A stretch of 59,586 nt of DNA from Candidatus Chloroploca sp. Khr17 (GCF_004138165.1 NZ_RYFF01000020.1:33982-93567), one strand, 5' to 3'. Positions 13,535 through 55,061 are shown, counted from the stretch's first letter. Numbers and translations: made by a program. The notes: generated by a model not told the origin, from the sequence alone.

Positions 13535-13599
13535 AGGCGAAGGGTGAACAGTTACGCTTCAAATAGGGTGTTTTGTGAGTGACTTTGCGGAGCAAGCAT

Positions 13600-35600: not shown

Positions 35601-36859
35601 CTATCGCCAATCGGCGATCATAATAGCGCTACCTCTGGAAGGAATGCCTCCTCCGCCAGCAACTCTTCGGCCATTGCCGTCGAGAACAGTAATAGTCACT
35701 TCTTGACCTACTTGCAAACCACATAAACGAGCATTCCCACCAGTATCAAAGCGACCACTTAGACCAATTCCATCCACCACGAAGTACCAACCTGCAGGAG
35801 TAATACCATTAATTTTAACCGAGATGCAACGAGGATCGTCATTGTAATTCACTACTCTGAACCGAAGCCTCTTAGCTTCAGGTTGAGGTGCTGGTACGGG
35901 TGTTGGTGGAGGTCTGAGACGATCTAAGGCTGCTTGCGCAACTGATGTATTTGAAATAGGGAGAGCGACAGCTTTGGCATAGATGCGTCGAGCATCACTA
36001 AGATTACCTTGCCGTTCGAGTTGTTCGCCATATGCAATGTATGCATCATAGAGCAGAGCATTGCTATCAAGAAAATTCGCTTGTATTGCAGCTAACTCCT
36101 CGAACTTAATTGCTGCATCACGCCATTGACGCTTCTTGTTCAATGCTACTCCATCAAGGTAGAGTACTAAGATTTGCTGCTGAGCAAGAGCCAACTGATG
36201 TGACGGATCAACGGCAAGCGCTGCATTGAATTTATCAAGTGCATCAACTGGCTGCTCTCCCCTAATGAGTTGAATTCCCCAATTGTAGTAGGTAGAACTC
36301 AACTTTTCGGTTACATCTAGATAGTTTCTGTCACTCTGGTAAATGGACTGAAAAGCATCGGCTGCATCACGCCATCGCTCTTTGGTGTAAGCATCGACTC
36401 CTTTCCTATAGTTTAGTGCGTTTACCGTTCGGGTATCTGGGGTTGGAGATCGTGCCGCGATAGAGGTTCTGGACGGAGAAGTTCTGGGTGTAGCTGAGGG
36501 CCTTTGTTGCTCTGGTCTAGAGGTCGGTTGAGTGCGCACCGGTGTAGCGGTATCAGCGCTGGCTACTACTACAGCAGCTGGCTCACGATTAGGCGACTGG
36601 CTAACCTCGGGAGGAGGTGTGCCATTACGCCCAATGATTACACCAATCAGCACCCCCACAATGAGCAAGACACCAACCCCGATTGCGATCACAATTGGTG
36701 GAAAAGTTCGTTGTGCTATGCCTCGTGTAGGCGGTGTTGACCGTTGAACCTGCTTTTCAGGAACATCAATCGGCCCCACCTCTTTCTGCTGGAGATACTG
36801 TTGATACTCTTCATCATTAGCATCGATCTCACCGTGTTTGTTAAATGTGGGCATAAACA
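35601..36859 (-). CDS. Island operon gene 14: single-pass membrane protein with TPR-like helical repeats and a C-terminal beta-rich domain.
   Basis: Start at ATG 36859/36853 ('MFMPTF'). TM 'FPPIVIAIGVGVLLIVGVLIGVIIG'. Repeats carry a W-x2-A-x3-[FL] signature ('WRDAADAFQSIY', 'WRDAAIKFEELA'). The layout matches the ectodomains of 47366-49150 and 50021-52735. Confidence 0.7.
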
Positions 36860-36931
36860 TCCTCGCCTGGCAAAAACGTGCGGTTAATTCCACCACAACT
36901 GACTACAGATAAGAATACATAAGCGTACAAA

Positions 36932-37735
36932 TCAACGTGTTAAAGCGCGTTGAACCATTGCCGAAGGGCGCAGAGCTTGATCACTCTCGAGAAACGCCCG
37001 CGCCATCCGCATGGGTTGGTAGCGGCGCGAACCTACCACCACGACACTATCCTCAAGCGGATCCGCTAGATCCCAACGCCCCAGTCCATGACGTACCAGT
37101 ACCTCGCCGATGTAAGCACCAAATGTACGTACATTGGCTGTAAGCAGATCTTCATCCCGTAGGAATGTACGATGTTCATTGTCTACATTGAACTCGAAAC
37201 GTTCCAGGCTCTCGACGGAGTAGTCGAGAGCAAGATCTTCATAGAGTGCCGTACGAAAACGTTCAGCTAGGGTAGCCGGTTCGAGCTCTTCCGCATCCGT
37301 GTCTTCATCATACGTATCACCATTGAAGGCACGGTAGATGAGCTCAATGGTAGCTTGGAGGTGCGCTATCGTCTGAGTCACTGTTGCGGCCGTGAACGTT
37401 GGTAGTGGACGATCACAGATCAAGCAGAGGTCACGATCATGATCGAAAGATAGACATGCATCCACTAAGTCATTGTTCATTTGGCTCATTATCAATGCAA
37501 GGGGACTGATATCTTCCCCTTCCTCAGCCGCATACAAGGGCGTTATGCAAAAACGCACATACTCATCGCCAAGTGGCCCTATCTGGGGATATGCCATAAG
37601 ACGGAATGTGCCGCTCGTAGTAGGCCCAATCGGACACTCGATGTCGAAATAGATAATAGGTTGATCGCTATCAGGATCTTCAACGTCGTAGACAAGCCCT
37701 GCTGTGGTGAAAGCAGTCGTAAAAGATATAGACAC
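36932..37735 (-). CDS. Island operon gene 13: strongly acidic cytoplasmic protein, possibly a chaperone/immunity-like partner of the basic proteins.
   Basis: GTG 37735 is preceded by AGGAG ('taggagtaagcctGTG'), immediately after the stop of the upstream gene. Asp/Glu-rich runs include 'DVEDPDSD' and 'YDEDTDAEELEP'. The N-terminal half looks YbjN/chaperone-like by eye only. Confidence 0.65.
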   Translation of the reverse strand: MSISFTTAFTTAGLVYDVEDPDSDQPIIYFDIECPIGPTTSGTFRLMAYPQIGPLGDEYVRFCITPLYAAEEGEDISPLALIMSQMNNDLVDACLSFDHDRDLCLICDRPLPTFTAATVTQTIAHLQATIELIYRAFNGDTYDEDTDAEELEPATLAERFRTALYEDLALDYSVESLERFEFNVDNEHRTFLRDEDLLTANVRTFGAYIGEVLVRHGLGRWDLADPLEDSVVVVGSRRYQPMRMARAFLESDQALRPSAMVQRALTR

Positions 37736-37748
37736 AGGCTTACTCCTA

Positions 37749-38390
37749 TTACGGTATCTGACGAATTTCCACATTTTTACGCTTCGCGGCTGTAATACGC
37801 TGCTTGATTATCGCATTTTGTTCAGGTGTGGTGTTCTTTGGCTTTGGAACCGCGACAACAAGATTGCTATTCTTGCTGGATAAAGCGTTTAATTCGGGAT
37901 TTTTATTTGATTTAAACTTCTTGTCCTTATAAGATTTGACTTGTGATATCTTTCTGTTGAGATTTTTTTGATCAACACCAGCGATACCCTTTACCGGTCG
38001 ATAATTTTCAATCAATTCAAATTTAAATTTTTTCGGATCAGTACTCCGCTTTAGCACCCTAAGTGTGTCAACACGTTTTCTATTCTCAAGTGCTACTTCA
38101 GAGAAAACATCTCCGCGCTTAATTTGCTTATAGTTTGGCGGTGTTTTTCCCTGCAAAGTAGTTGCAGACTTCGGTTTGCGATTGTGTAATTTTGCATGGT
38201 AATTTGTGGAGATTTTGTTGAATTTATGTCCATTAGCTGTATTTCGCCGCAGTTGTGTTCGCTTAAGCTCATTTGACGAAGAGACATTGCGTGCGGCAGC
38301 TTTCATTTTTGTTTTGGAGATCGGAACGGAGATGCTACTTCTATTTACTTTGGGTGTGCCATGCGTAGATTTGCTGCCAACTTTTTTCAT
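37749..38390 (-). CDS. Island operon gene 12: extremely basic Lys/Asn/Arg-rich protein of unknown function. It is the lowest-GC gene in the window.
   Basis: SD 'aggggtg' before ATG 38390. 213 aa dominated by K/N/R/S/T ('KKFKFELIENYRPVKG', 'KSYKDKKFKSNKNPE'). In the 60-nt line starting at 37861 I count 18 G+C. Confidence 0.7.
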   Translation of the reverse strand: MKKVGSKSTHGTPKVNRSSISVPISKTKMKAAARNVSSSNELKRTQLRRNTANGHKFNKISTNYHAKLHNRKPKSATTLQGKTPPNYKQIKRGDVFSEVALENRKRVDTLRVLKRSTDPKKFKFELIENYRPVKGIAGVDQKNLNRKISQVKSYKDKKFKSNKNPELNALSSKNSNLVVAVPKPKNTTPEQNAIIKQRITAAKRKNVEIRQIP

Positions 38391-38410: not shown

Positions 38411-38977
38411 TTACTTCTTACGCACAATCTTTGGTCTGCCCTGGAAACGTCCGAGCCGCCGCGCCTGTTCGATATGCTGTTCGTTGCGCTCTTGCATCTG
38501 TGCAGCTTCAAAATCGCGCAGGATCTCGTCGGGTTTCTGTAGTGGTTCGGCATGGGGCATAAACATGCTGCTGAGTGCTGCCAACCCCACGAGACCATCA
38601 ACTGTCTTCACCGCAGTGTAGGCTTTGGCCTGATTGAACTTGCCTTTGAACCAATTTAGTTTAGATATTTGATTCGGTGTGGGGGATTTTGGCTGATTCG
38701 AGCCACGAACAGTAGGGTGCTGCAGACCTCCTCGCACGTTGCGTGTTGGCAACGTACTGCTTGGCTTCGCCTTAACTTGTTTTAGTGGTGGCGTCCGAAC
38801 CTTTGATGTTGGGTGCTTCGCCAGTTTGCGTGTCGCTTGCTGCAACTTGACTGGTGTAACCCGCTGCCGGGCGGTTGTTGAAGCAACTGGTTGTAGAGCA
38901 CGTACTGGCGGCGTAGGCTTTGGGGTATTGGGGTTGCTCACACCTGCCCCACTTTTAGTACTCCGATTAACCTTCAT
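38411..38977 (-). CDS. Island operon gene 11: basic Pro/Thr/Lys/Arg-rich protein of unknown function.
   Basis: ATG 38977-38975 overlaps the TGA 38976-38974 of the upstream ATPase gene (ATGA coupling). The N-terminal ~110 aa are low-complexity and basic ('KPTPPVRALQ...KHPTSKVRTPPLKQVKAKP'). The C-terminus is helical ('DEILRDFEAAQMQERNEQHIEQARRLG'). Confidence 0.65.
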   Translation of the reverse strand: MKVNRSTKSGAGVSNPNTPKPTPPVRALQPVASTTARQRVTPVKLQQATRKLAKHPTSKVRTPPLKQVKAKPSSTLPTRNVRGGLQHPTVRGSNQPKSPTPNQISKLNWFKGKFNQAKAYTAVKTVDGLVGLAALSSMFMPHAEPLQKPDEILRDFEAAQMQERNEQHIEQARRLGRFQGRPKIVRKK

Positions 38978-41787
38978 GCGCCTGCTCCAATCAACATTTG
39001 CAGCACCTGGGCATCTACGGGTAAGCCCGAGTTGCGCATCCAATCAGCAGCCAAACGCAGGTAGACCCGTCGCACTTCGGCGTAGCGCGGGTGCGCACCA
39101 AATCGTGCCGTACAGATCTGCTCAATCTGGGTATGGTCCAGGGCACGATCTCCATAGCCCCCCAGAACATCTTCAATCGTTTCAGGCAAGCTATACCCAT
39201 CTTGTGCAAGCACCCACTTAGCTGCGGCATGGGGATCGTCCGGTAGGATGCTAACGGTCTGCACTTGGTTTGGCATCGGTGGCTGCCAGAGCGCCGCTGG
39301 CGGCATCTGCAACGGGCGGCGGGCCATCATCGCCTTCACGGCCTCATCGGAGTCATCAAAGATCGGGCGATCATCGGGCGTCTGAAAACGATCCAGGTAG
39401 TTGCCAACCTGCACGAAGATCGGGCGACTATCGGGGCCTCGTACAATCACTTGGCCCTGCCCGAGTGAGCGTACGTATTCGCGCTGACGCTCATTCAGGT
39501 TCATCACCTCACAGAAGAGCTTAAAGCTCTCCTGATCTTCGAGCCGATGCATGATTTTGAGGTTCGTATTGCCTAGCGCACCATTGACCAGTTGGGTTGG
39601 GATCTGCTCAGCGATCAAGATCCCTTCCCCAAACCCGCGCACCTCAGCCAAAATATTGGCGAAATCCTCTCCACCACGACTCCGTGCGTCAGCAAGATCT
39701 TCGCTACCCTTGTGTCCAGCCGACATAAGCCGATGGGCTTCTTCGATCAGAGTCATGTGCAGTTGTTTGCCGCGTTGTTCGGGTGGGAGGCGTTTGTAGC
39801 GGCTCTGCAATTCTTGGGTCAGTTGTACCAACAAAAAGGCCATAATCAGGGCGCTATCTTCGGGGGAGCCAACCCTTCCTAATTCCATGACGGTTGGCCG
39901 TGAGAGCACTACACTGAGCGGGGCTGGAGCCGTGGTATTGACAATTGTCCCTGCATTGAGCAGAAGATCACGCATGCGAATTTCGGCTGATTGGCGTACC
40001 CGGTCTTTGGCCTCCTCATCAAAGCCCGCCGTCATCAACTCGCTCACCGCAACGAGCGTCGTGTAGAACGCAGCCAAGGTGGGGGTGCCTACCCCCGGAT
40101 CGCCCCCCTTGCCCTGTTCGAGATTCCAACCTGCATCGGTATAGACCTGACGCAGGGCTGCGCGATAAATCGCTGGCAGAGGATCCCACATCGAGAAGGC
40201 GGCCATAAAACAGCGCATCAACAAACTGAGATGGGTCTTAAGCAAGATCCCCTCTGCCACGTAGAAGGGGTTGAAGCGGAAAGGCGTGGTGGTTTCATCA
40301 CCCAGCGTAAAAATTAGCAGATCGTCGGCCATTTGTGGGTCGGCCATGAGTAGCCGATAGTCCGGTTTGTCAATTGGGTACATCACCAGGAATGGTACCT
40401 GGTGGTCGGCCCAAAGTTGGGCCAGCATGTGCAGGCATGTGTTAGTTTTACCGCTTCCCGTAGCCCCTGCGATGAGACCGTGGCGGTTAAGGTCACGGAT
40501 CGGAATTTGCATATACTGGCCAGTACGCGTGCCACGATGGATGATCTCACCGAGGTTCAAACAGGGCACGTTGGTGAGCAGGCGATCGGTTGGCAAAACG
40601 AATGGCTCGTCGCGTACCTCAAGCCCGGGTAGATAACCACTCTCGGGGGGGATCGGCAGACGGAAGGCCCCCGCCGCTTGGTCGGTACTGACGAGATAGC
40701 GCAAGCGTACTGTCGCCTGATCAACGCGTGTTGGCCCCCAGGCTCCGTACTCAAGAAACGCAAAGTTATAACGTGCAATCGCCAGATCTTGATCATCCTT
40801 AGGGCTTTCGCTGGCCCATTGACGTGGCTCCGGCGTATTGTTTTGAATCAACTCGGAACCCAGCGCTTCCATTACATCATTAGGTGCATAATCCGATCCT
40901 ATCACTTGGATTTTTATGCGGAATAAATGATTTCTTTTGTTGATCAGAGGCATAAAGGTACGGGAAATATCATCAAAGCGTTCACGGCGATACAAATCAA
41001 ACCATGATTTGGACTCAACTTCTGCTGTGAGATTGCGATAACGTGAGAGCAGTAAGTTAATCTGGAGTAGCTCTTCGTGGAAGAGCACTGTTGGTCGCAA
41101 GCAGATGCTTGCGACACAGGTTTGCTCTTGTTGCACCAGCGTTTCTAAGAAGCGGCCAAAAGCAGAAGCATCAAAAACTGGACTAAAGGGATGTGGGAAG
41201 TAGCCAATGGCATCAGTACCTGCGTATGGATCAAAATCCTCAAACTTGCGAATCTCGACCAATTGGTTCATGCCTACCTGTTCAATGGGAATAGGTAACA
41301 TTGAACGCATGAAGTCGTCTTCGCCTAACGGCTCTAATGGGTAGTTGAAAGGATCTTCGAGAGGGTAGTGACTACGAAACTTGCACCAGAGCTGCCAGCA
41401 CAGATTTTTGGCGCGATTGCGGTTGGGATGGAAAGCCTTGCCAAGAAAGACAATCTCAATGGTTGGGCGATGTCCTGTCACTTGACTTGGTCGAGCAATA
41501 AACCGCAGATCGAAGGCGGCACTACCCTCGGCAATCATCCGAGCGTTGATCAAATCATTCAGGAAGCGGATTTGACGCAGCGTAATCAACCGAATACGAC
41601 TCAGTTCACCTCCACTGAGCGTACGCGTGAAATCGCTGGTTAAAAAACTAGGAATGAACGGCACCCGTGCTGCAAAGATAGCGTGCGCCCCCTGCTGGCG
41701 AGTGACTTGCACCCCACTACCCCCCCAACTCTCGGCATAGTGGAACTCATCGGGATTGCTGACGTAGATGAACGGCTCTTGCAACAT
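38974..41787 (-). CDS. Island operon gene 10: HerA/FtsK-superfamily (DUF87-like) P-loop ATPase with a ~430-aa N-terminal domain of unknown function.
   Basis: SD 'aggaagg' lies 8 nt before ATG 41787. Walker A 'GLIAGATGSGKTN' at 40444-40467. Walker B/sensor 'LHMTLIEEAHRL'. 'ILIAEQIPTQL...NTNLKIMHRL' is typical of HerA-like NTPases. Confidence 0.75.
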   Translation of the reverse strand: MLQEPFIYVSNPDEFHYAESWGGSGVQVTRQQGAHAIFAARVPFIPSFLTSDFTRTLSGGELSRIRLITLRQIRFLNDLINARMIAEGSAAFDLRFIARPSQVTGHRPTIEIVFLGKAFHPNRNRAKNLCWQLWCKFRSHYPLEDPFNYPLEPLGEDDFMRSMLPIPIEQVGMNQLVEIRKFEDFDPYAGTDAIGYFPHPFSPVFDASAFGRFLETLVQQEQTCVASICLRPTVLFHEELLQINLLLSRYRNLTAEVESKSWFDLYRRERFDDISRTFMPLINKRNHLFRIKIQVIGSDYAPNDVMEALGSELIQNNTPEPRQWASESPKDDQDLAIARYNFAFLEYGAWGPTRVDQATVRLRYLVSTDQAAGAFRLPIPPESGYLPGLEVRDEPFVLPTDRLLTNVPCLNLGEIIHRGTRTGQYMQIPIRDLNRHGLIAGATGSGKTNTCLHMLAQLWADHQVPFLVMYPIDKPDYRLLMADPQMADDLLIFTLGDETTTPFRFNPFYVAEGILLKTHLSLLMRCFMAAFSMWDPLPAIYRAALRQVYTDAGWNLEQGKGGDPGVGTPTLAAFYTTLVAVSELMTAGFDEEAKDRVRQSAEIRMRDLLLNAGTIVNTTAPAPLSVVLSRPTVMELGRVGSPEDSALIMAFLLVQLTQELQSRYKRLPPEQRGKQLHMTLIEEAHRLMSAGHKGSEDLADARSRGGEDFANILAEVRGFGEGILIAEQIPTQLVNGALGNTNLKIMHRLEDQESFKLFCEVMNLNERQREYVRSLGQGQVIVRGPDSRPIFVQVGNYLDRFQTPDDRPIFDDSDEAVKAMMARRPLQMPPAALWQPPMPNQVQTVSILPDDPHAAAKWVLAQDGYSLPETIEDVLGGYGDRALDHTQIEQICTARFGAHPRYAEVRRVYLRLAADWMRNSGLPVDAQVLQMLIGAGA

Positions 41788-41806: not shown

Positions 41807-43195
41807 CTAAGCGTAAGCGGTCATAACGGCTTCGACCAGCACAAGTAGATCGCACTGGGGCGTCCAGTTAGCGAGCGGTTCAGGCATGAAGCGCTGCTCT
41901 TGTCCATCGAACTCTACAAACATAGTTGGAGCCTCTTGGGGATACCGAGCCGTACAACTAAAATAGATGCCGAGGGTGTGCCCAAGCTGATCACGCAGGC
42001 TGACACTGACCAGGAAGACGTTCGCATCTTCGTGTAGGGCGGCGTTTAGTCCCTGTGCTAGCATTGCGCCTATCTCGTTGCGCAGGCGTTCGCCAGCACC
42101 TGCGCCGCTGAAGCGTGCGACGGGTGACGGTAAAGCGGGAACAGTCACACCATACATCCCTCCGAGAGTAGCTGTAGGTGGGGCTACGGCCTGTCCGGTG
42201 AGCGCCCCAAGCAACACCTGTTGAAGGTCATTGCTACCTGCCGCCGATGTCCCCATCGGCAGCATCCCCGCCTTCGCCATCTCGGTCAGGGCCAGTAAGC
42301 GTTGTCCATCTGTTTGCGCTTTATCACCAAAGACACGCGTGTACATGTCTGGATTGGTCAGCAAGAGATATTGCGGTGTCAATTCAATCATGCGCGAGAT
42401 ATTCATCTGTGTGAGCGCCTGTGCCATCGCAATCTCGGCCTGCGAGTTCGCCTGGATCTTCGCGACCTCGGCATCAGTTTGCGCCTCGCGGGTACGCATA
42501 TAAACGTCACGTAATTTCTTGTCCAGTTCTTCAGCACCCGCAATACGCGTGATCTGGACGTTCGAGACTCGTATTCCCAAGTTGTCTTCAATGCCGCGTT
42601 GCTGCAATTGCTGTGCAACCATGTAACCTGCATGACCGCCCGCCTGGAAATCCTGGTATTTAGCAATTGATGCAGTGATCGAACGAATTGATTCCATCAC
42701 CGTATCATAGAGCCTCGTGAGCGGCTGTTCGACGACAAGCGCAACGTGTTCAGGATGAATTATCTGATAACTGACTGCAACATCGAGATCAACTGGCAAT
42801 GCAATCTTCTCACCCTGGGGCGGCTGATAGAAAATCGTAAACTCCTTCGTCGTTGTTATATCCAGCGTGCGCTCACGCGTATTGACCACGTAGAGATCAA
42901 TGCGATTCATCACGGGAAACGAGAGCGCGTGATAACTCCCTTCTTGCAGCACTTCGAGCACTCTGCCATCCCCGGTCACAACGACGGTAGTGCCAGCCAT
43001 AACCCGAAAGATACGAAAGATACTGGTGAAGACATTGTTATGAACACGTACTGGACCAAAGACAAGGGGTGAATTACTTAGATCAGCAAACGGTTCACGC
43101 AGGAAGTCATCAAGCGAGCCCTGTCTGCTCGCTGCTTCCTTATCGTTAACGTGACGACGGTTTAGGGGCATGGTCTGGTCACGGTTAGTTCCCAT
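41807..43195 (-). CDS. Island operon gene 9: SPFH/Band-7 (flotillin/prohibitin-like) domain fused to a C-terminal UEV/RWD-like (non-catalytic E2-fold) domain.
   Basis: ATG 43195 follows 'ggaaggag'. The SPFH-like core runs from 'VVVTGDGRVLEVLQEGSYHA...' through 'VDLDVAVSYQIIHPEHVALVV' and 'GIRVSNVQITRI' to a coiled-coil 'AQTDAEVAKIQANSQAEIAMAQA'. C-terminus 'LGIYFSCTARYPQEAPTMFVEF...NWTPQCDLLVLVEAV'. Confidence 0.7.
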   Translation of the reverse strand: MGTNRDQTMPLNRRHVNDKEAASRQGSLDDFLREPFADLSNSPLVFGPVRVHNNVFTSIFRIFRVMAGTTVVVTGDGRVLEVLQEGSYHALSFPVMNRIDLYVVNTRERTLDITTTKEFTIFYQPPQGEKIALPVDLDVAVSYQIIHPEHVALVVEQPLTRLYDTVMESIRSITASIAKYQDFQAGGHAGYMVAQQLQQRGIEDNLGIRVSNVQITRIAGAEELDKKLRDVYMRTREAQTDAEVAKIQANSQAEIAMAQALTQMNISRMIELTPQYLLLTNPDMYTRVFGDKAQTDGQRLLALTEMAKAGMLPMGTSAAGSNDLQQVLLGALTGQAVAPPTATLGGMYGVTVPALPSPVARFSGAGAGERLRNEIGAMLAQGLNAALHEDANVFLVSVSLRDQLGHTLGIYFSCTARYPQEAPTMFVEFDGQEQRFMPEPLANWTPQCDLLVLVEAVMTAYA

Positions 43196-43229
43196 ACGAG
43201 CCAACTCCTTCCTGAGGCGCACAAGGTTG

Positions 43230-44453
43230 TTAGGTTTGATTGGGTAATATGCTAAGCTGAATGACCGGAAGATCAGCCAAGATGTCCGAAGCTTCGGCGG
43301 CTGCTTCTTGTTCACTCATCTTGAGGCTTTCGGCTACGAAAGCTGAATAGTTGCACACCGGACATTGAGCATTCTTCGGCACATCAATGAAGAGGCTCTC
43401 TAACGGCTGTTGAAAGATCCACTCCGCACGATTACCGAAGAGGAGCCAGTTCGTCGGCAGATCCGGTAGCGTGTTCTGCTTATCGCGCAGAAGCGTTAGT
43501 AACGCCATACGCGCCATTAACAGCGCAATCATACCCACATCAACCCCTAGACCTGGCTGAGCCAGTAATTCTTCCATACGTGCGGGATCTTCGTAACCCA
43601 GCGAGAAATCCTGTGTAGCGGCAGGGGGAGGGCCAAAAAAATCGGCAATGACGGTCTGAAAACAGGCGTAGCAAGCACCCTCGGAGGGAATTGCACGGAA
43701 GATATCACCCCCAAAGGCGCGATTGTAGGCTGCGGCATAGATAGCCGGGATCCCTCTTGGCCAGCACACGGTATTGACCGCCAACTTTGAGTCTTCATGA
43801 TCAGTAGCGACCACAACCAGATCACACCCGGTAACAATGGTAGCTAGTTGATCCTCATGGCCTAACACGTTCAACTCGTAGGTCTCGACGGTAATTGCGG
43901 GCGAGATGTCGTAGAGCAGATCGCGCAGGGCACGGGTCTTATAGCGCCCGATATCGTGGAGGCCACACGCATGACGTGCAATATTGTGAACTTTGAGCCG
44001 ATCAAAATCCACCAACCGCATCTGCCCTACTCCGCAACGAGCAAGCTGGCTCGCCACCACTGAACCACCTGAGCCGAGGCCAATCACGGCAATGCACGTA
44101 TTGGCGAGGCTGCTCACTTCAAAGATGCCGTGCATACGTGAGGCATAGTCAGTATGCAAACGGATGACGTTGCAGGAAATCGTTTCCCATCCAGTAGCCT
44201 TGCTTTGCCAACCAGCAACCTGATCTGGCAACTCATCGTCAATGTTGAGGACTATTTCTTCCGGGGCCAGTTCTGTTGTTGGCGGTACAGGGCTGCGATA
44301 CCAGCGACCTAGGTACGCACCGGACGCCTCAAGGATTCCCCTGATTTGCACGACATCGCCATCGTCATAACGGTAGCCGTAGAGCTTGCCCTCTGTCTGT
44401 GCAGCAGTACCAAGCAACTGGTTAATCAAGCTATCAGGAACGGTAAGAAACAT
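43230..44453 (-). CDS. Island operon gene 8: ThiF/MoeB/E1-like adenylyltransferase with an N-terminal degenerate JAB-like segment.
   Basis: SD 'ggag' lies between the upstream TAG and ATG 44453. Rossmann motif 'IAVIGLGSGGS' at 44061-44081. 'RLVDFDRLKVHNIARH' is the E1 Arg-finger/Asp region. 'GACYACF'. The N-terminal 115 aa align by eye to the two JAB proteins, but with HKH replaced by YRS. Confidence 0.8.
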   Translation of the reverse strand: MFLTVPDSLINQLLGTAAQTEGKLYGYRYDDGDVVQIRGILEASGAYLGRWYRSPVPPTTELAPEEIVLNIDDELPDQVAGWQSKATGWETISCNVIRLHTDYASRMHGIFEVSSLANTCIAVIGLGSGGSVVASQLARCGVGQMRLVDFDRLKVHNIARHACGLHDIGRYKTRALRDLLYDISPAITVETYELNVLGHEDQLATIVTGCDLVVVATDHEDSKLAVNTVCWPRGIPAIYAAAYNRAFGGDIFRAIPSEGACYACFQTVIADFFGPPPAATQDFSLGYEDPARMEELLAQPGLGVDVGMIALLMARMALLTLLRDKQNTLPDLPTNWLLFGNRAEWIFQQPLESLFIDVPKNAQCPVCNYSAFVAESLKMSEQEAAAEASDILADLPVIQLSILPNQT

Positions 44454-44464
44454 CGGCAGACTCC

Positions 44465-45865
44465 CTATTGCAGTGGCTTCCCTTGATCTGGTTGAACCGA
44501 TGTTGGAAATACATAGCTGCGGTTGAACTCAGCGCAGAGGTCAGCCGCACTACGACAGGCCAGTTCAACTTGACGTACGATCAGACGACCTTGAAATTCG
44601 AGCAACTCACCAATGCGCTGGGATGGACGTGGTTGGGTCAAGGTTTCAAGCACATTGCGCACTACATCACGTAGGCGTATATGGGTACGCCAACCACCAG
44701 GAAAGAGTTGTTCAGTCACAATACGTACTACGTTATCATCACTCAACACGACTTGGACTTCAGGCGCTTGCTGCGGAAACTGTGAACCAGGATCAAGCTT
44801 AATAGCTTTGATCTGTAGCGGCTCTGTTTGCGCAACTGGCGCGACATTTACCATCCCCTCCGGCGTTTGCTGGGGTGCTGGGATTATCTCAGGGATATTC
44901 AGGGTCATTAGGGGCGGATGCGTAAAGGTAATCGTATACCAAACTCCGTTATCATCGCGCGTATGTACCTCCAGATGCGCCCCAGATCGCAAGGTCTGGC
45001 AGTACTGTTCCAGATCCTGTTGTTCGCGTGCAAAGCGGCCAGGAAGGGGAGGGATTGGCGGAATGCTTGCATCAGGTGGTGAACCTGAGAAAGGTGGTAT
45101 TTCAGGCGGCACGAAATCAGTCGCTGAACGACGAGTGTAAGAGGAACTTTCTAGATCGATGACCTCCAGGGTATCAGGAGGTTCCACATCTAGTGTGTAA
45201 GGTGAGGTATGTGGCTGCACCGGAGGATGGGAATGCAGATTGGCCCGGGCAGCACGGAGATCGGCCGGGTTGACTCCCCAGCGATCAGCAGTTCCTGATG
45301 TTGCGTGAGGAGGTTTTGGCGCAACTGTCTGTTGTTCTAGCGCAACCAGACCATCCAACAAGACGCGAAGGTCGCCTTCGACAAGCTCACATGGCACAGG
45401 CGTCGCACTCATCGTCTCACGGGGATAGTAGTGCCCATGGAGCAGAAATGTACCATCTTCAATGGTTACAAGTGGGGTGAAGATACCGTGGGGCAAATGA
45501 TAGGACTCATCGCTCAAGATATCGACCACCTGAAGCGTATCACCCGAACTTGGCCGATGCAAACCTGGCGGATGCTTATGCCACTCACCAACATAATCAA
45601 CGTGGTAGGTGGCGTAGTGCTGACGCCACGTTTCCAGGTCGCGTTGGCGAGCAAGTGCATCTGGAGCATAGGTATGCGCCCGTCGGTCGGCATTGCTACC
45701 AGGACCAGAGGCTGCCACAACGACGAGGTGGAGTCCATCGGGGAGTTGGAACATACGTCCAACCAGGATGCCGCCGGTCTCACGTCCAGGGCTCGTACAT
45801 GCCTCGTCGTACATCCGCTGATAGACATCTTGTTGGGCCAGATAGACGGTATTTGGTACTGGCAT
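44465..45865 (-). CDS. Island operon gene 7: JAB/MPN+ (JAMM) metallopeptidase fused to a C-terminal UEV/RWD-like domain.
   Basis: ATG 45865 lies one nt after the E2 stop codon (TAA 45869-45867). 'ETGGILVG'. An intact JAMM motif 'HKHPPGLHRPSSGD' (H-x-H-x7-S-x2-D) at 45539-45580. C-terminus 'IKAIKLDPGSQFPQQAPEVQVVL...GGWRTHIRLRDVVRNVL'. Confidence 0.85.
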   Translation of the reverse strand: MPVPNTVYLAQQDVYQRMYDEACTSPGRETGGILVGRMFQLPDGLHLVVVAASGPGSNADRRAHTYAPDALARQRDLETWRQHYATYHVDYVGEWHKHPPGLHRPSSGDTLQVVDILSDESYHLPHGIFTPLVTIEDGTFLLHGHYYPRETMSATPVPCELVEGDLRVLLDGLVALEQQTVAPKPPHATSGTADRWGVNPADLRAARANLHSHPPVQPHTSPYTLDVEPPDTLEVIDLESSSYTRRSATDFVPPEIPPFSGSPPDASIPPIPPLPGRFAREQQDLEQYCQTLRSGAHLEVHTRDDNGVWYTITFTHPPLMTLNIPEIIPAPQQTPEGMVNVAPVAQTEPLQIKAIKLDPGSQFPQQAPEVQVVLSDDNVVRIVTEQLFPGGWRTHIRLRDVVRNVLETLTQPRPSQRIGELLEFQGRLIVRQVELACRSAADLCAEFNRSYVFPTSVQPDQGKPLQ

Positions 45866-45866
45866 G

Positions 45867-46322
45867 TTAGTCTGCCTCAATTCCAGGCCAATAGGTTTTC
45901 CCTGACTCAAGCCAGGTTTCGTAGGCAAAGAACCAAGCGGCGGCTACCGCGATCACGGTTGCTGCCGTGGTTTGCTGGGCAAACGAACGATCACCAGGGT
46001 AGTAGAGGCATAGGTGTCCATCGTTATACTGGTGCTTGAGGCGGCCTGCTTGCTCGTCCTTCCAGACGGTAATCGCTGGGTTAATGGGATAAACTTTAGG
46101 CGGATCATCGGGAAAGTTGTCAGGATAGTAGAGTGCAATCTCATAGCGCCTTTCGCGATTACTCTCTAAGGTGCCGATCCAGACCAACTGGTTACTATCA
46201 CGCACGAGCTGAAACTGGGGAAAGCGCGTTTCCATAGCTCTCTTTTCCAGTACGAGTCGTGCGGGATTAAGGTCATACCACGCTGCATACCAGCGCATCG
46301 GACGGAGAATAGTTTGGCCCAT
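45867..46322 (-). CDS. Island operon gene 6: E2/UBC-like ubiquitin-conjugating-type enzyme with a candidate catalytic Cys.
   Basis: 'YEIALYYPDNFPDDPPKVYPINP' is the E2 flap motif (46098-46115). 'KHQYNDGHLCLYYPG' has the Cys codon at 46008-46010 (H..N..G.lC, as in E2 HPN...C). A C-terminal helix 'TVIAVAAAWFFAY' follows. Confidence 0.8.
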   Translation of the reverse strand: MGQTILRPMRWYAAWYDLNPARLVLEKRAMETRFPQFQLVRDSNQLVWIGTLESNRERRYEIALYYPDNFPDDPPKVYPINPAITVWKDEQAGRLKHQYNDGHLCLYYPGDRSFAQQTTAATVIAVAAAWFFAYETWLESGKTYWPGIEAD

Positions 46323-46387: not shown

Positions 46388-46588
46388 TTATGCTCGTGTA
46401 AATAGGGCAAACCAGCGCTGCGGTTTAAGCACTGTCTTGCTCTGTGGATCGGTCTGCGCGACCTTGGGATCTTCTGGGACGTGCATCTTGCCATCCGGAC
46501 TGACGACAACTTCCTGTGCGGTGGCAAGACGCTTCTTAAGTTCTTCCAGGCTGGATTGTGGGCTACGAGGGGGTTGTGGCGTGCTCAT
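46388..46588 (-). CDS. Island operon gene 5: 66-aa hypothetical protein, probably disordered, occupying the position where a Ubl gene would be expected.
   Basis: ATG 46588 is preceded by a strong SD ('caggaggtacaccaccATG'). Sequence: MSTPQPPRSPQSSLEELKKRLATAQEVVVSPDGKMHVPEDPKVAQTDPQSKTVLKPQRWFALFTRA. There is no C-terminal Gly and no obvious beta-grasp pattern. Confidence 0.55.
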   Translation of the reverse strand: MSTPQPPRSPQSSLEELKKRLATAQEVVVSPDGKMHVPEDPKVAQTDPQSKTVLKPQRWFALFTRA

Positions 46589-46640: not shown

Positions 46641-47357
46641 TTAGATAATACGTTCGGTATATTGTGCCCAAACCGACTGTTGCGTCGGTGGCTGGTTCGT
46701 GACTTGAGCATAAGAAATGAGGCCCAAAAGGTTGTTGACCACTGCCAGCAGTGAACTATTGCCATTCCAACTGCGCAGAACAGACGAATCAAGTGCGAGG
46801 TGATGTTCGGCTAGTTCACCACAGGCATCAAACCCGAGCATGGTGGCAATGAGCTGCGGTGCGATAATTGGATAGTCATCCGTACAAATGAGATGGATCG
46901 AGACATTCTCCCCATCACTCCGTGCCACCCGGATCTGAACACAGTACTCTTCGACATCCGGGCGCCCGGCGAGGCTCACCGCCTCGTAACCATTACTGCG
47001 TAACTTCGCTACTTCTTGCGTCAAACGTTGCACCACATTTATTGGGGTAACATCAATCACTTGGCGACTTGCAACTGGGGTTCCGGCTGGTGTAAAACCA
47101 CCCGCGCCGGAACTCCAGGTTGGTACCTGCGATGAAAGCGTCGAAGTGTCTTCATGGATTGGCATTGGAGGCGGGCGCATGGTGGGACTAGCCGGTGGGA
47201 GAATGAACGCTTTACCCTGTTTTGATGTTACTTCTGATTGGCTCGTTGTGGCGCGTCGCCCACTCCCGCCTCGTTGGAGTACGAAGACAACGAGGATCAG
47301 GACGACGAGAACGAGGACGCCCCCACCAGCAATGATCAGCAGAATTGATGTATCCAA
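46641..47357 (-). CDS. Island operon gene 4: N-terminal TM anchor, Pro-rich linker and UEV/RWD-like domain.
   Basis: TTG start at 47357 follows GGAGG, which overlaps the upstream TAG ('TAGGAGGcgtcTTG'). TM 'ILLIIAGGGVLVLVVLILVVFVL'. 'VSIHLICTDDYPIIAPQLIATM...SWNGNSSLLAVVNNLL'. Confidence 0.7.
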   Translation of the reverse strand: MDTSILLIIAGGGVLVLVVLILVVFVLQRGGSGRRATTSQSEVTSKQGKAFILPPASPTMRPPPMPIHEDTSTLSSQVPTWSSGAGGFTPAGTPVASRQVIDVTPINVVQRLTQEVAKLRSNGYEAVSLAGRPDVEEYCVQIRVARSDGENVSIHLICTDDYPIIAPQLIATMLGFDACGELAEHHLALDSSVLRSWNGNSSLLAVVNNLLGLISYAQVTNQPPTQQSVWAQYTERII

Positions 47358-47365
47358 GACGCCTC

Positions 47366-49150
47366 CTAGCGGGGTATGATGCGTACCAGATAAGTCGCAC
47401 TGGTACTCAGATCCAGGTTCGCTTCGCCTACCATCGGCAATTCCGCCAGGCTCAGCAAGTAACGTCCACTGGGTAGGGCCGCACTCGCGACACCTGTCTG
47501 ATCAGTCACGATCTGGCGATTGCCGCTCGATCCCACAAGGTTGAGTACCAGATTAGAGGTAGGTGCAATAATCAGCAGATTGACCGGATCGCCATTGATC
47601 TGCGTTGCGAGACGACGATCCGTAAGCAAACGCGTCCATTCAGATGCATCGAGTCGGGTTGTAATGATTTGATAGGCACTCGTGCTTGCAAGCAAAGCTT
47701 CGGCTTCGCGCTTGAGTTGGCGCGCACTTTCCCCACGATCCTCTGCAACCTGAGCAAGGCTAAGTGCGGCGTTGGCCTGAGCGAGCGCGTCGGTGCCAAC
47801 TGTCCCGCCGCGTTCGAGCAAGGCTAGACCGTAACCGACATAAGAATCGTAGAGCCACTGCTCGACGGTGCGTACCGCAGGGTCGCTTGTGTTAGGCCTT
47901 AATTGCACGGCCTGTTCAAGTTCGCTGATCAGGGCGGGCCATGTAGCGACACTTGCATCGCGGAATTGTGTCGCCCGTGCAATCCACTTCAAACGATCAG
48001 CTAGTCCTTCAAGATCTTGCTCCAGAGTTGCAGCAAGTACATAATGCTCGTGAGACTCAATGACATCCGTGGCAAAGAGGAGGTCACCCCATGCCAGCTG
48101 GGCTTGTGCCAAGCGGGTCTTGACGCCTATCGCTGCTTCAGGACTCTGCGCTTCAGGGTGGAGAACATGGATCTGTTCAAGCAGGGCTACTACTTGTGCC
48201 CAACTTGCCGTGGTATTCACTGCCCATAGTTGCTCGGCCTCAGTCCAGAGCGTCTTCGTCCGGGCTTCGATAACAGCAACTAGTCCAGCCTGAGCATCAG
48301 AGGAGGCTGGATCAAGCGCGAGAGCCTGGCGAAACATGGCTTCCGCCTGATCAAGTTGGTTCGCTTCGAGGAGTGCGGACGCATAACGCTCATAGGCGGT
48401 GATGAGCGGGATTGGATTGGCAACCAGGCTACCGCAACTACCACCCACCCCGCTCTGACCACGGTTGTGCATTGCTTCGAGGGTATGGGTTACTTGCGCG
48501 AGGGATTCGCGATCACCGACTGCATAGGCTTGAGCCACGAACTGCTGCTCGGAAGCGCACGGATCGTAGAGCAAGGTATAGTAGAGTAGCAACCCCCCGG
48601 CAATGAGCAGGGTGACACCTCCACCTACCACGGCTAAGATCTTCCCTGTGGCGGAACGACGCGTTGGGGTAGGAAGGGGACGTTCTTCACGAGGTGGCAA
48701 CTCCTTAGGGAATGGCACATCAAGTGGTGGCATGGGGGCCACCGGTTCAGCAATGCGTGCAAGCCGTAGATTGGAACTCTGTACGCTGTCCTGGACTTCC
48801 AGAACGATTTCGTAGAGCATCTGGCGACTCGACCAACTGAGACGGGTTTTTGACTCGACATCAATCGGGAGTTCTTGTAACTCGCCGTAGCTTGTTGTGC
48901 CGGGTGTGGTCACGGTGACCACAAGATTGGGCGCCGTAGCTGGAAAATTTGCATCAAGCTGGAAGTAGAGATGCACCGGCTGTGGCCCTTCGTGCGTGTC
49001 ACGAACCAACTCTACTGTTAAGTAGTAGCGCTGAGCACTCGCGTCCTGCTGGAGGTCGCAAGCATAGCCCATATCACGGATGGCCTTGACCTCTTGACCA
49101 ATGCGCTCAGCGTGACTTTGGTCAGCGGCCATGGGGGGGAGGGATGACAT
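47366..49150 (-). CDS. Island operon gene 3: UEV/RWD-like domain, TM, helical (TPR-like) repeats and a C-terminal CarboxypepD_reg-like beta-sandwich.
   Basis: 'PVHLYFQLDANFPATAPNLVVTV...SWSSRQMLYEIVLEV'. TM 'ILAVVGGGVTLLIAGGLLLYYTLLY'. Repeats 'SWAQVVALLEQIHVLHP' and 'TWPALISELEQAVQLRP'. C-terminus 'DQTGVASAALPSGRYLLSL'. Confidence 0.75.
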   Translation of the reverse strand: MSSLPPMAADQSHAERIGQEVKAIRDMGYACDLQQDASAQRYYLTVELVRDTHEGPQPVHLYFQLDANFPATAPNLVVTVTTPGTTSYGELQELPIDVESKTRLSWSSRQMLYEIVLEVQDSVQSSNLRLARIAEPVAPMPPLDVPFPKELPPREERPLPTPTRRSATGKILAVVGGGVTLLIAGGLLLYYTLLYDPCASEQQFVAQAYAVGDRESLAQVTHTLEAMHNRGQSGVGGSCGSLVANPIPLITAYERYASALLEANQLDQAEAMFRQALALDPASSDAQAGLVAVIEARTKTLWTEAEQLWAVNTTASWAQVVALLEQIHVLHPEAQSPEAAIGVKTRLAQAQLAWGDLLFATDVIESHEHYVLAATLEQDLEGLADRLKWIARATQFRDASVATWPALISELEQAVQLRPNTSDPAVRTVEQWLYDSYVGYGLALLERGGTVGTDALAQANAALSLAQVAEDRGESARQLKREAEALLASTSAYQIITTRLDASEWTRLLTDRRLATQINGDPVNLLIIAPTSNLVLNLVGSSGNRQIVTDQTGVASAALPSGRYLLSLAELPMVGEANLDLSTSATYLVRIIPR

Positions 49151-49207: not shown

Positions 49208-50017
49208 TCAGATCCGGCCATAGAGATCAGTAACAATCGTTGCCAGACGACACGAACCGTCCCAGGGGAAGAAGATTCCGGAACCAATATTGAGCGAGGT
49301 GCCATGGCGCTCGACAACCACGGAAGGTGGTTGCTGAGGGTAAGTTGGCTCACACACCATATAGATCGTCGTCCCATCCTGTGGTCGGGTAACGGTTACG
49401 CAGCACGTGCCGTCTTGGAGGGTATTGATCTGGACGGTGCCAAATTGGGCCAGTGCTATGCGCTCACCAGCGATACGCTCGGCGAGATCCAAACTAGGAC
49501 GAGGTGTGGCTCCCCCTACCGTCTGGTGCGGGCTAGGTGGTGGATCAGGTGGTAGTAATGGCCCCGAACTACGTAGCCCAGCAGTAGGGGAGGCGTTCGT
49601 TCTAGCTATGAGTCCGCTCGTCCGGAGATTGCCGTCCGACCTAGAGGCTATAGTAGGCCCGCGGCCCATTGAACTGCCAAGCACGAGGCCAAGCAGTAGG
49701 CCGGGAGCTGTCCCAAGCAGCATTGCCACACTGTACATACGCAAACTCCCAAGGGCTAGTCCTAGATTATCGCTCAGCAGCATATTTAGGACACCACAAA
49801 GCAGCACAAAGACGAGCGCACTAGCTGCGGGGCCAACGAAGATCGCCCAGTGGTAACCTTGTGCGACACGCCCGCGTAAGAGTAGACCTCCACCCAGGCC
49901 CCCGATGATCAGCCCGATCATTGCCAGAGCTAGAACCACCAGCGGGTTCGTGCTGATCAATAGGCCCATGCCCAGGAAGAAGAGACAACTGACGATGATA
50001 ACCATTGCTGCAAGCAT
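49208..50017 (-). CDS. Island operon gene 2: 4-TM Gly-zipper membrane domain, Pro-rich linker and UEV/RWD-like domain.
   Basis: ATG 50017 lies 3 nt after the upstream TAA, with GGAGGA inside the last codons of the upstream gene. TM segments include 'GLIIGGLGGGLLL'. 'TTIYMVCEPTYPQQPPSVVVER...PWDGSCRLATIVTDLY'. Confidence 0.75.
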   Translation of the reverse strand: MLAAMVIIVSCLFFLGMGLLISTNPLVVLALAMIGLIIGGLGGGLLLRGRVAQGYHWAIFVGPAASALVFVLLCGVLNMLLSDNLGLALGSLRMYSVAMLLGTAPGLLLGLVLGSSMGRGPTIASRSDGNLRTSGLIARTNASPTAGLRSSGPLLPPDPPPSPHQTVGGATPRPSLDLAERIAGERIALAQFGTVQINTLQDGTCCVTVTRPQDGTTIYMVCEPTYPQQPPSVVVERHGTSLNIGSGIFFPWDGSCRLATIVTDLYGRI

Positions 50018-52900: not shown

Positions 52901-53189
52901 TGATCAAGGTGGTCAGGCTTGAACGCAGGGAAGCAGCGCACGCGGGCATGGTGACCGTGGTCGCTCGGTGAACGAACGAGATTCTTCAGTTCTTGGTTCG
53001 CATATGTACCGCAATTGCAGCTTCGGGCCGTGAACCGCGCGGCTTGTGGGCAGCGAAGGCTACCTGCGTGGCCTGATCCAGCCGACGAAGGTCGGCTTTG
53101 CCATGCGTCGCCGCCGCGTTGACGCCGACGGTCTGGGCGGATGGGTGCGTTCTGCCGGTTGGGGAATTTGCGCGCCTGGCTTTAGTGTC

Positions 53190-53201
53190 GTATCATGATA
53201 C
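53190..53201 (+). promoter_or_regulatory. 12-bp perfect palindrome abutting the hicA start codon (candidate HicB operator).
   Basis: 'gtatcatgatac' at 53190-53201, with the ATG at 53203. Confidence 0.3.
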
Positions 53202-53202
53202 T

Positions 53203-53469
53203 ATGGAGCTAAGCAGTCGCCACCGCAAGATGCTACGGGCCGTTTTTGCTGATCCCGTTCGCGCTGACGTGAAGTGGGCGGACGTTGAGACGCTGCTGCA
53301 TGCGCTTGGTGTCGACATTGGCGAAGGAAGAGGGTTACGCGTCCGGATCCAACTCAACGGTGTGCGCGCCGTCTTTCATCGACCGCATCCTATCCCGGAT
53401 ACCGACAAAGGTGCGCTTAGGTCATTACGACGGTTCCTAATAGAAGCAGGTGTGAAGCCGGAGGAATGA
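53203..53469 (+). CDS. hicA: Type II toxin-antitoxin system toxin, HicA family.
   Basis: 88 aa from ATG 53203. 'HRKMLRAVFADPVRADVKWADVETLLHALG...FHRPHP' matches the HicA-family pattern as I remember it. It lies directly upstream of the hicB-like gene. Confidence 0.75.
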   Translation: MELSSRHRKMLRAVFADPVRADVKWADVETLLHALGVDIGEGRGLRVRIQLNGVRAVFHRPHPIPDTDKGALRSLRRFLIEAGVKPEE

Positions 53470-53472
53470 GCC

Positions 53473-54956: not shown

Positions 54957-54984
54957 GCCCAATGCGCTGTAACAAAGATGTTTT

Positions 54985-55061
54985 TTTGACGCAAAGGCGC
55001 GAAGGCTTGATGTATCTCCAGTTAAGAGCTCACAGGTCTGCCAGACCTGTGAGCTCTTAAC
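54985..55061. repeat. 'tttgacgcaaaggcgcgaagg' module followed by a 20-bp perfect palindrome. Both are related to modules of the 30092-30319 composite repeat.
   Basis: 'gttaagagctcacaggtctg c cagacctgtgagctcttaac' (55021-55061) shares its core 'cacaggtct...agacctgtg' with 30092-30124. 54985-55005 is the reverse complement of the 'ccttcgcgcctttgcgtcaaa' module. Confidence 0.8.

Follow-up and report, generated by a model that had tools for sequence, protein, structure and literature searches.

A VirB4-like ATPase in a Chloroflexota gene cluster with alternating protein-handling modules and charged, toxin-type neighbours

Introduction

What is the role of a motor ATPase of the FtsK/HerA/VirB4 superfamily in an operon for ubiquitin-like (Ub-like) conjugation? 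This question is raised by a gene for a 937-aa ATPase, located at 38974..41787 on the minus strand of a 59,586-nt stretch of DNA from Candidatus Chloroploca sp. Khr17. The whole stretch is referred to as the window (W), and all coordinates are counted on it. On the evidence presented below, we rate the cluster around this gene as a VirB4-derived motor in a new machine. The architecture of the ATPase, the swapping of modules beside it and the rule of charged leaders in the proteins encoded behind it are robust and surprising, all of the evidence being computational.

VirB4 counts as the signature ATPase of type IV secretion. The full two-domain architecture of VirB4 in a conserved chromosomal cluster without other parts of a type IV secretion system (T4SS) would mean that another machine has taken over this motor. 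Chloroflexota, filamentous bacteria, abound in wastewater sludge, digesters and microbial mats, and their competition and defence are poorly understood. A cluster combining a HerA/VirB4 ATPase with SPFH, UEV/RWD, Hsp70/J and toxin genes was not found described in the open literature and bioRxiv; Burroughs et al. 2008, a study on the E2 fold, may hold a prior mention.

Architecture of the ATPase

The ATPase gene is genuine and not a chance open reading frame (ORF), because 270 database proteins match its product at E<=1e-5, the best of them with 78% identity over the full length. The homologue of Oscillochloris trichoides DG-6 (OSCT_0926) is 74% identical. The ORF starts with ATG, upstream of which lies the Shine-Dalgarno-like sequence AGGAAGG. 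The stop region reads GCGCATGAAGG, and the TGA stop (38976-38974) overlaps the ATG (38977-38975) of the gene for a basic 188-aa protein as ATGA, an overlap already seen by an earlier note made on the sequence alone. The protein comprises an N-terminal domain (NTD; aa 1-405, nt 40573-41787), a P-loop core (aa ~408-800, nt 39388-40566) and a helical C-terminal tail (aa ~850-937, nt 38977-39240), all on the minus strand, and neither a transmembrane (TM) segment nor a signal peptide was predicted in it.

The motifs on which the earlier note had based its classification are all found at their positions, namely the Walker A motif GATGSGKT (aa 441-448, nt 40444..40467, minus strand), the Walker B motif LIEEAH (aa 680-685, nt 39733..39750, minus strand), IAEQIP at aa 725 and IMHRL at aa 745. 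Across 61 aligned homologues, G441, G444, G446 and K447 of Walker A and E682, E683, A684 and H685 of Walker B are invariant, as are about 30 positions within the N-terminal 400 aa. The protein carries the features that define the FtsK/HerA/VirB4 superfamily, a Walker A motif GxxGxGK[ST] and a Walker B motif hhhhDE on a RecA-like core, and with its catalytic motifs intact it appears to be an active member.

Library matches are confined to the C-terminal half and agree with the placement of this half in the HerA/FtsK/VirB4-like clade by the earlier note. They include HerA_C, FtsK_SpoIIIE, DUF87 and TrwB in Pfam; mad8 (1e-18, among the best), several HerA models and PbeA in PADLOC; the archaeal DNA-translocating ATPase CedD in NCBIfam (5e-13, far below the cutoff); and the HerA/DUF87 chains 8yho, 4d2i, 8xau and 8wiv in the PDB sequence search. 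The HerA models of NCBIfam give 29 and 16 bits, with cutoffs of 800. For the first ~405 aa, searches of Pfam, PADLOC, NCBIfam and PDB sequences returned no match.

This N-terminal part, in whose ~430 aa the earlier note had found no motif to name, acquires an identity at the level of structure. An AlphaFold model of aa 1-410, built on the alignment of 61 sequences, reached a predicted local distance difference test score (pLDDT) of 90.1 and a predicted template modelling score (pTM) of 0.90. Foldseek returned 8 matches to this model at E<=1e-3, every one of them a TrwK/VirB4 chain; the best structural matches were VirB4 and EccE, and no match to a HAS-barrel was found in the structural comparison. 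The domain thus has a VirB4-NTD-like fold, so that the whole protein follows the plan of VirB4 (an NTD and a VirB4/DptH-like P-loop C-terminal domain, CTD), in soluble form, rather than the architecture of HerA. The top structural neighbour of the P-loop core is DptH-C, and the domain order typical of VirB4, a membrane-docking-type NTD of ~400 aa followed by an ATPase CTD, is present. In T4SSs the NTD of VirB4 touches VirB3/VirB8 and anchors the hexamer at the membrane (PMC12857230).

The NTD family is rare, with 170 cluster representatives at E<=1e-3 among 1.84 billion. Most members are NTD+ATPase proteins of ~900-1000 aa, and some are stand-alone forms or fragments of ~380 aa. In P0166, P0168 and P0173 (~1450-1500 aa) and in the related locus L066, a TPR extension of ~680 aa precedes the VirB4-like NTD and the ATPase. 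The genomic contexts of further distant members (one TPR-fused with 1463 aa, two others with 902 and 1083 aa) were uninformative. A hypothetical protein of 963 aa on the Priestia megaterium plasmid pN447-3.1 (L068, 8758-11649) matches NTD and ATPase with 27% identity (E 5e-65), and DUF87 proteins of actinobacterial plasmids (L069 is a Streptomyces plasmid) match the ATPase half at 33-36%; the neighbours of the Priestia and Streptomyces relatives are unannotated and uninformative.

Gene neighbourhood in related loci

The neighbourhood of the ATPase was compared in 62 related loci (23 from genomes, 39 from metagenomes; designated by L numbers), almost all from Chloroflexota, of which 56 are non-redundant. 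Clusters of ORFs were labelled by Pfam-checked seeds and purpose-built profiles. The ATPase is the one invariant gene of a cluster that is nearly confined to Chloroflexota.

At least 5 kb upstream of the ATPase are available in 38 of the 56 non-redundant loci. Here an SPFH protein is encoded in 28/38 loci, J-domain/double-zinc-ribbon/TM proteins in 22/38, Hsp70 in 21/38 and E1, with E2 and JAB, in 8/38, while 6/38 possess neither the E1 set nor the Hsp70/J set. The Hsp70 of the cluster is a DnaK paralogue of ~515 aa (Pfam 1e-125), and the J-domain proteins, arrayed as 2 to 8 paralogues, vary in their outer domains (PD40 propellers and BACON among them). The UEV domain of the SPFH protein persists in loci without E1/E2. 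Two protein-handling modules, E1/E2/JAB with UEV and Hsp70/J with double zinc ribbons, alternate beside the ATPase core; both include arrays of membrane-anchored proteins, with UEV/JAB domains as heads on the cytoplasmic side in the former and J-domains plus double zinc ribbons in the latter.

In a neighbour-joining tree of the ATPases, those linked to E1/E2/JAB form one clade consisting of W, L001, L024, L002, L003, L011 and L027 together with the upstream-truncated L026. L025, which is also E1/E2/JAB-linked by gene content, was left out of the tree because its ATPase is cut by the contig end. The sister group of this clade carries two SPFH-RWD paralogues downstream instead, and the Hsp70/J-linked ATPases form a large separate clade. 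Since the E1/E2/JAB-linked ATPases form one clade, their link to these genes is not accidental.

The cultured Chloroflexus aggregans harbors a minimal version of the cluster (L070, CP001337.1 1336598-1359390), with an ATPase 59% identical to that of the window. Its five genes at 8074-13813 encode an SPFH-UEV protein with two N-terminal TM segments, a polytopic membrane protein of 179 aa, the ATPase, a basic 195-aa protein with a net charge of +41 and a YbjN-like acidic protein; neither E1/E2/JAB nor Hsp70 is present in this locus. The 179-aa protein gene lies directly upstream of the ATPase gene, the usual position of virB3. Because only 8/38 loci possess E1/E2/JAB, compared with 21/38 for Hsp70, and the C. 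aggregans locus is devoid of it, E1/E2/JAB is an accessory, dispensable module and not the defining context of the ATPase. The tie to Ub-like genes drawn by the earlier note is hence borne out as co-variation within one clade and does not extend to the family, which mostly lies outside such operons.

Charged and toxin-type proteins downstream of the ATPase

In nearly every locus, the ATPase gene is directly followed, often with a short gap or an overlap, by a gene for an extremely charged low-complexity protein. Its net charge ranges from -13 to -141 in most loci and is positive only in W, L001, L003 and L024 (+24 to +29) and in C. aggregans. The charged protein is followed by small proteins with a similar N-terminal leader and a C-terminal toxin-type domain, and then by an immunity- or chaperone-type gene. 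In none of these downstream charged and toxin-type proteins was a signal peptide or TM segment predicted; their operon partners are TM-anchored.

Among the 45 loci with at least 1.5 kb downstream of the ATPase, 22 encode a ~195-aa family with an invariant HExxH...E motif together with a conserved partner of ~110 aa, and 6 encode other toxin-type proteins. The acidic region is fused to the HExxH domain as one protein in L018, L020, L033 and L052. A WHH-type HNH nuclease (2.6e-18) is paired with an SMI1_KNR4/SUKH protein (1e-25) in L011, a papain-like C39/C70 peptidase (1.6e-14) occurs in L008, and L003 encodes a YbjN/TY-Chap1 protein (Pfam 3.5e-5) of the family of type III secretion system (T3SS) chaperones. 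In L063, which holds a distant family member (31% identity in the NTD) with vWA-containing upstream genes, a 201-aa protein is followed by SUKH and TsiV genes. Tandem toxin-immunity cassettes stand at a fixed position in L011, L034, L037 and L050. The pairing that characterizes polymorphic toxin-immunity loci is thus found among the relatives, as WHH with SUKH, as SUKH with TsiV and as HExxH with its partner. A 146-aa protein of L003 was considered as a GH-E HNH nuclease and set aside, having no support from Pfam or NCBIfam.

The charge of the ATPase tail is inverse to that of the downstream protein (Spearman -0.53, p 2e-4, uncorrected for phylogeny), and the charge of the NTD or the core shows no correlation with that of the partner. 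In a comparison of the tails of L004-L055, the motif PMxTCxxCx(8-10)C proved to be kept in the Hsp70/J and the double-SPFH clades; it is lost in the subclade of the window (W, with tail aa ~830-937, L001, L024 and L003). The ATPase of the window ends with LIGAGA (38977-39000, minus strand), and its three closest relatives end with LLGGAQ, LLGGAK and LVGTTP. The ends of these closest relatives resemble a Gly motif of Ub-like proteins followed by a short tail. The ATPase C-terminus was considered as a substrate of E1, comparable to the CD-NTase C-terminus in cyclic oligonucleotide-based antiphage signalling systems (CBASS), and this candidate was rejected as a general feature because the remaining, more distant ATPases linked to E1/E2/JAB do not share such an end.

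The operon in the window

All genes of the window operon are located on the minus strand. The basic protein overlapping the ATPase stop (38411..38977, 188 aa) contains 19% K+R and 10% P and consists of an N-terminal low-complexity leader rich in S, T, K, R and P and a C-terminal domain of ~80 aa with a hydrophobic helix. Its net charge is +29, computed on a 210-aa ORF with TTG start that contains it. It has its sole homologue in L001 and holds the position that highly acidic proteins occupy in most other loci. The second basic protein (37749..38390, 213 aa) has the same type of leader and is a candidate nuclease toxin; its C-terminal domain weakly resembles a contact-dependent inhibition (CDI) toxin of restriction-endonuclease fold (Pfam CDI_toxin_EC869_like, E 1.5e-3, below cutoff). 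The protein at this position in L001 shows a YraN/UPF0102 nuclease fold (Pfam 3e-5, above cutoff; NCBIfam 3e-8). Both basic proteins look like leader-bearing toxins or effectors. Of the earlier note's claim that the overlap implies stoichiometric co-production with the ATPase, the overlap itself stands, and the role of a structural, stoichiometric subunit does not suit a protein of this kind with an acidic counterpart in most loci.

The next gene encodes an acidic 280-aa protein (36932..37774), the N-terminal part of which is YbjN/T3SS-chaperone-like (4.9e-10). The match comes from a profile seeded on the YbjN/TY-Chap1 protein of L003, which recovers this protein and those of L001 and L024, and suggests a candidate immunity protein or effector chaperone. 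The YbjN match of the C. aggregans locus falls on the corresponding gene. By the measure of polymorphic toxin-immunity loci, the window itself thus offers a sub-threshold nuclease-fold match and a YbjN-like neighbour. A 431-aa single-pass membrane protein with TPR repeats (35601..36896; TM aa 70-88; Pfam TPR_2 4e-7) is encoded by the last conserved gene of the block, at whose place L001 has two paralogues. Over 36001-38000, where the genes for both basic proteins and the 280-aa protein lie, the GC content falls to 0.48, compared with 0.52-0.57 elsewhere in the operon and ~0.60 in the left flank; such a dip is consistent with a recently exchanged cassette.

Upstream, the E1, E2, two JAB proteins and SPFH protein that flank the ATPase confirm that it is embedded in a Ub-like operon, as the earlier note had it. 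Immediately upstream lies the gene for an SPFH/Band-7 protein with a C-terminal UEV-like (inactive E2 fold) domain (41807..43315, probable start ATG 43195; Pfam Band_7 2.5e-8). It is preceded by genes for an E1-like adenylyltransferase of the ThiF family, Cap2-like (43230..44453; Pfam ThiF 5e-35, PADLOC E1-E2 5.7e-41), a JAB isopeptidase with a C-terminal extension and the motif HKHP...SxxD (44465..45928, probable start ATG 45865; Pfam Prok-JAB 2.5e-8, PADLOC JAB 2.3e-15) and a 151-aa E2-like protein, probably active, with the Cys motif HQYNDGHLCLYYPGD (45867..46322; PADLOC E2 1.9e-24). NCBIfam matches among these proteins are cap2_3 and Cap3.

Directly upstream of E2, a conserved 66-aa ORF (46388..46588) with the sequence MSTPQPP...KPQRWFALFTRA ends with KPQRWF(+0-6 aa). 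A tblastn search detected it at this place in each of the eight E1/E2/JAB-type loci (E 4e-31 to 5e-10) and in none of the Hsp70-type loci. It has no family match and may be a modifier or substrate of the E1/E2 pair, though it is devoid of a C-terminal Gly. No Gly-terminated small ORF and no match to a family of Ub-like proteins (Ubl) was found in the window operon.

The remaining upstream genes encode a 238-aa protein with an N-terminal TM anchor and a UEV-like domain (46641..47357), a 594-aa protein with an N-terminal RWD/UEV-like domain, a TM segment at 171-189 and a TPR region (47366..49150; Pfam RWD 3e-3 and TPR), a 269-aa protein with three TM segments and a C-terminal UEV-like domain (49208..50017) and, as the first gene of the block, a 904-aa protein with JAB, a UEV-like domain, a TM segment at 330-348 and a long low-complexity/coiled region (50021..52735; Pfam Prok-JAB 5e-7). 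The UEV-like domains of these four proteins were recognized by the UEV profile. The profile from E1-type loci aligned to UBE2D2/UBE2N/UBE2V2 with hhalign 96.3% (E 1.7e-9, 101 columns) and to the operon's own E2 with 98.3%, and the profile of the SPFH-attached copies in Hsp70-type loci aligned to UBE2D2/UBE2N/UBE2V2 with 95.5%. They are genuine E2-fold domains with the YPxxPP motif and, by reading of the alignment, appear to be devoid of the catalytic Cys.

Comparison with known systems

The window ATPase shares its plan of NTD and ATPase CTD with VirB4/TrwK of T4SSs. In contrast to these, it shows only 8-16% identity to them (8-9% in the structural alignment to TrwK), matches none of the VirB4 sequence profiles (CagE_TrbE_VirB and the VirB4-type AAA_10 at Pfam E<=0.01, nor any in NCBIfam) and has an extra C-terminal tail domain. 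Its partners are SPFH-UEV, Hsp70/J or E1/E2/JAB proteins, and the putative substrates are small charged-leader proteins instead of DNA-relaxase complexes. No VirB1/3/6/8-like protein, VirB1-like hydrolase, pilin, VirD4 coupling protein or relaxase was found in the window operon or among the neighbours in L005, L007 and L022, VirB3/6/8 being hard to detect by sequence (PMC12857230). By sequence profile and gene context, the window ATPase is not a VirB4 of a T4SS.

The HerA defence systems (Sir2-HerA/Nezha, DUF4297-HerA) and DptH of Dnd/Dpt contain ATPases of the same superfamily, encoded beside toxic effectors. The window cluster differs in being much larger, membrane-centred and equipped with immunity-type genes. 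Because its ATPase has no HAS-barrel and no NurA, Sir2 or DUF4297 partner was found in the window operon, it is not HerA in the strict sense. Type VII secretion, known from monoderms with EccC/EssC, EccE, the Ub-fold YukD/EccD and LXG/WXG toxins, does not describe the cluster either. The window ATPase has one ATPase domain and not three, no FHA domain and no TM segments, and the cluster is devoid of WXG100/LXG helical leaders, EccB/D and MycP, its leaders being charged low-complexity segments.

The E1, E2 and JAB proteins of the window best match the families of type II CBASS (Cap2/Cap3), Bil and Bub. Unlike in these systems, E1 and E2 are separate genes, five extra UEV-like domains reside on membrane proteins, and the 66-aa ORF stands in place of a Gly-terminated modifier. 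For lack of a CD-NTase the operon does not count as CBASS: neither a CD-NTase nor a cyclase domain was found in its proteins, and the lone PADLOC 'Cyclase' match is that of E2 to an E2-cyclase fusion model. It would not be recognised as a Bil/Bub system either, since no Gly-terminated Ubl was found in it. The papers on bacterial ubiquitination returned by our search make no mention of an ATPase partner. With polymorphic toxin-immunity loci (Zhang et al. 2012), the related loci share toxin domains that vary at the C-terminus (WHH, restriction-endonuclease fold, papain-like, HExxH), with SUKH, TsiV or further small immunity genes directly behind them, sometimes in tandem. They differ in that the toxins are short, without PAAR, LXG, RHS, two-partner secretion (TPS) elements or signal peptide, in their low-complexity N-termini of extreme charge and in the linked machinery, a VirB4-like ATPase cluster.

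Proposed function and alternative explanations

We tentatively favour, at somewhat below an even chance, a membrane-docked motor which exports or deploys small leader-bearing toxins and for which Ub-like conjugation and Hsp70/J are interchangeable accessory modules. The ATPase ring would be docked via its NTD to membrane partners, as VirB4 is to VirB3/VirB8, with the SPFH-UEV protein as membrane scaffold, and would spend ATP on threading or handing over leader-bearing toxins destined for neighbouring cells or the envelope. The charged disordered N-termini of the toxins would be the element for recognition or threading, and immunity or YbjN-like proteins may protect the producer or chaperone the toxins. 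E1/E2/JAB with UEV in the window, or Hsp70/J in most relatives, might load, license, gate or recycle the cargo or the machine. The two basic proteins of the window would be cargo, and translational coupling would make the motor and its first cargo or adaptor together. The wider claim, that Chloroflexota possess a new protein-secretion or toxin-delivery system with a VirB4-derived motor but no other T4SS parts, with toxins known by extreme-charge leaders and with loading or gating by E1/E2/JAB and UEV on SPFH or by Hsp70 and J, is possible, yet we consider it doubtful.

Several points weigh against toxin export. Export is a prediction, and neither a channel-forming protein nor a peptidoglycan hydrolase nor any further component of secretion was recognised. 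A single fixed mechanism of threading would hardly accommodate leaders that can be strongly acidic as well as strongly basic. The toxin assignment in the window itself is weak, with its one Pfam match below cutoff, and the 188-aa protein has no Pfam or NCBIfam match and no recognisable domain. The HExxH family has no Pfam match better than 0.01, no meaningful PDB profile match and no NCBIfam match, and it is a candidate toxin or metallopeptidase by its motif, the paired small gene and Pfam DUF6782 at E 0.01. The ORFs of the related loci were called by a simple longest-ORF heuristic and the family profiles were self-built. Immunity-type genes can also be antitoxins of intracellular effectors, ATPase domains of VirB4/HerA type also occur in anti-phage systems (DptH, Sir2-HerA, DUF4297-HerA), and the E1/E2/JAB proteins are of the CBASS Cap2/Cap3 type; the latter two points both favour an immunity reading.

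The last points lead to an intracellular anti-phage or abortive-infection system, which we judge unlikely but the best placed of the alternatives. Here a VirB4/HerA-like ring would sense or translocate invading DNA, or scaffold effectors, and then free nuclease or peptidase toxins inside the cell. The 'immunity' proteins would be antitoxins, E1/E2/JAB would prime or regulate a component as Cap2/Cap3 do in type II CBASS, and the membrane proteins with variable ectodomains would sense attack on the envelope. The best PADLOC matches of the ATPase are indeed defence proteins (mad8, HerA models, PbeA), its core shows affinity to DptH, and E1, E2 and JAB match CBASS-type models. A HicA/HicB pair adjoins the operon, the GC content falls to 0.48 over the toxin cassette as compared with 0.60 in the flank, and paralogous receptor-like membrane arrays with PD40 propeller, BACON and TPR ectodomains would suit sensing. 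However, the operon yielded neither a nucleotide cyclase nor another sensor/effector pairing of a known kind, and pairs such as WHH+SUKH and SUKH+TsiV, together with tandem cassettes at a fixed position, are a hallmark of inter-bacterial polymorphic toxin loci and not of effectors of abortive infection. Moreover, the NTD is of the membrane-docking type of a secretion ATPase and not the HAS-barrel of defence HerA, and defence HerA systems are two-gene modules compared with the 5 to 15 genes here.

Closest to the earlier note's idea of a motor in a Ub-like pathway, and distinctly improbable in our estimate, is a protein unfoldase or segregase for substrates marked by Ub-like conjugates and read by UEV (window clade) or for clients bound by Hsp70/J (other loci). 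Such a membrane quality-control or remodelling machine would resemble Cdc48, the proteasomal ATPases or SPFH-enclosed FtsH. It would suit the alternation of two protein-handling modules by the same ATPase and the UEV domain that the SPFH protein keeps in the absence of E1/E2, which suggests binding to a component of the system; SPFH proteins also form a known cage around a membrane AAA protease (HflK/C-FtsH). On the other hand, rings of the FtsK/HerA/VirB4 class are not known to be protein unfoldases, a Ubl with C-terminal Gly was looked for and not found, and in C. aggregans the minimal locus retains the charged protein and the YbjN-like gene without either module. The variable nuclease and peptidase domains and the SUKH/TsiV genes are not explained by quality control.

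That the ATPase derives from a conjugative or other DNA-transfer element (T4SS, or DNA import of the Ced/Ted type), as its remnant or as a divergent component, and lies beside a Ub-like operon by chance is scarcely credible and largely refuted by the context data, since the VirB4-like fold of both ATPase domains, the weak CedD match and the distant relatives (27-36% identity) on Priestia, Streptomyces and Rhodococcus plasmids are set against the missing relaxase, coupling protein, VirB3/6/8-like, pilin and hydrolase matches in the window operon and three other scanned loci, the housekeeping flanks, the same non-conjugative neighbourhood with co-evolving modules in dozens of genomes and the strong conservation of catalytic motifs and NTD. 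The earlier note had reckoned with a fused mobile-element fragment should the NTD match a conjugative protein, a case that does not apply here: the NTD is conjugation-like, but no other conjugation gene accompanies it and the architecture is conserved chromosomally across Chloroflexota.

A motor coupled to toxin/immunity cassettes and to either a Ub-like/UEV or an Hsp70/J set amounts to a natural experiment on one core that is served by either of two protein-handling modules. Should the Ub-like arm, under the favoured export reading, serve to sort or license cargo on an SPFH membrane platform, bacteria would possess an analogue of ubiquitin/UEV-based sorting at membranes, and their E1/E2/JAB operons would gain a role beyond CBASS-type immunity. 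Cultured C. aggregans with its five-gene version makes the question directly testable.

Further genes of the window

Housekeeping genes such as that for phosphoenolpyruvate (PEP) carboxylase flank the window operon. Just beyond its first gene, a HicA toxin (3.9e-7) and HicB antitoxin (1.4e-21) pair is encoded on the opposite strand (53098-53793, plus strand). A 447-aa ORF at 57170-58513 (minus strand) contains CNLRCRHCY, as found in radical S-adenosylmethionine (SAM) enzymes, and is unrelated to the operon. An ECF-type (extracytoplasmic function) sigma factor and a Cys-rich protein of 267 aa, possibly its anti-sigma factor, are encoded at 54153-56084 (plus strand). Homologues of this pair adjoin the Oscillochloris cluster on its other side (L001 17763-19521), and the block has therefore moved relative to its neighbours.

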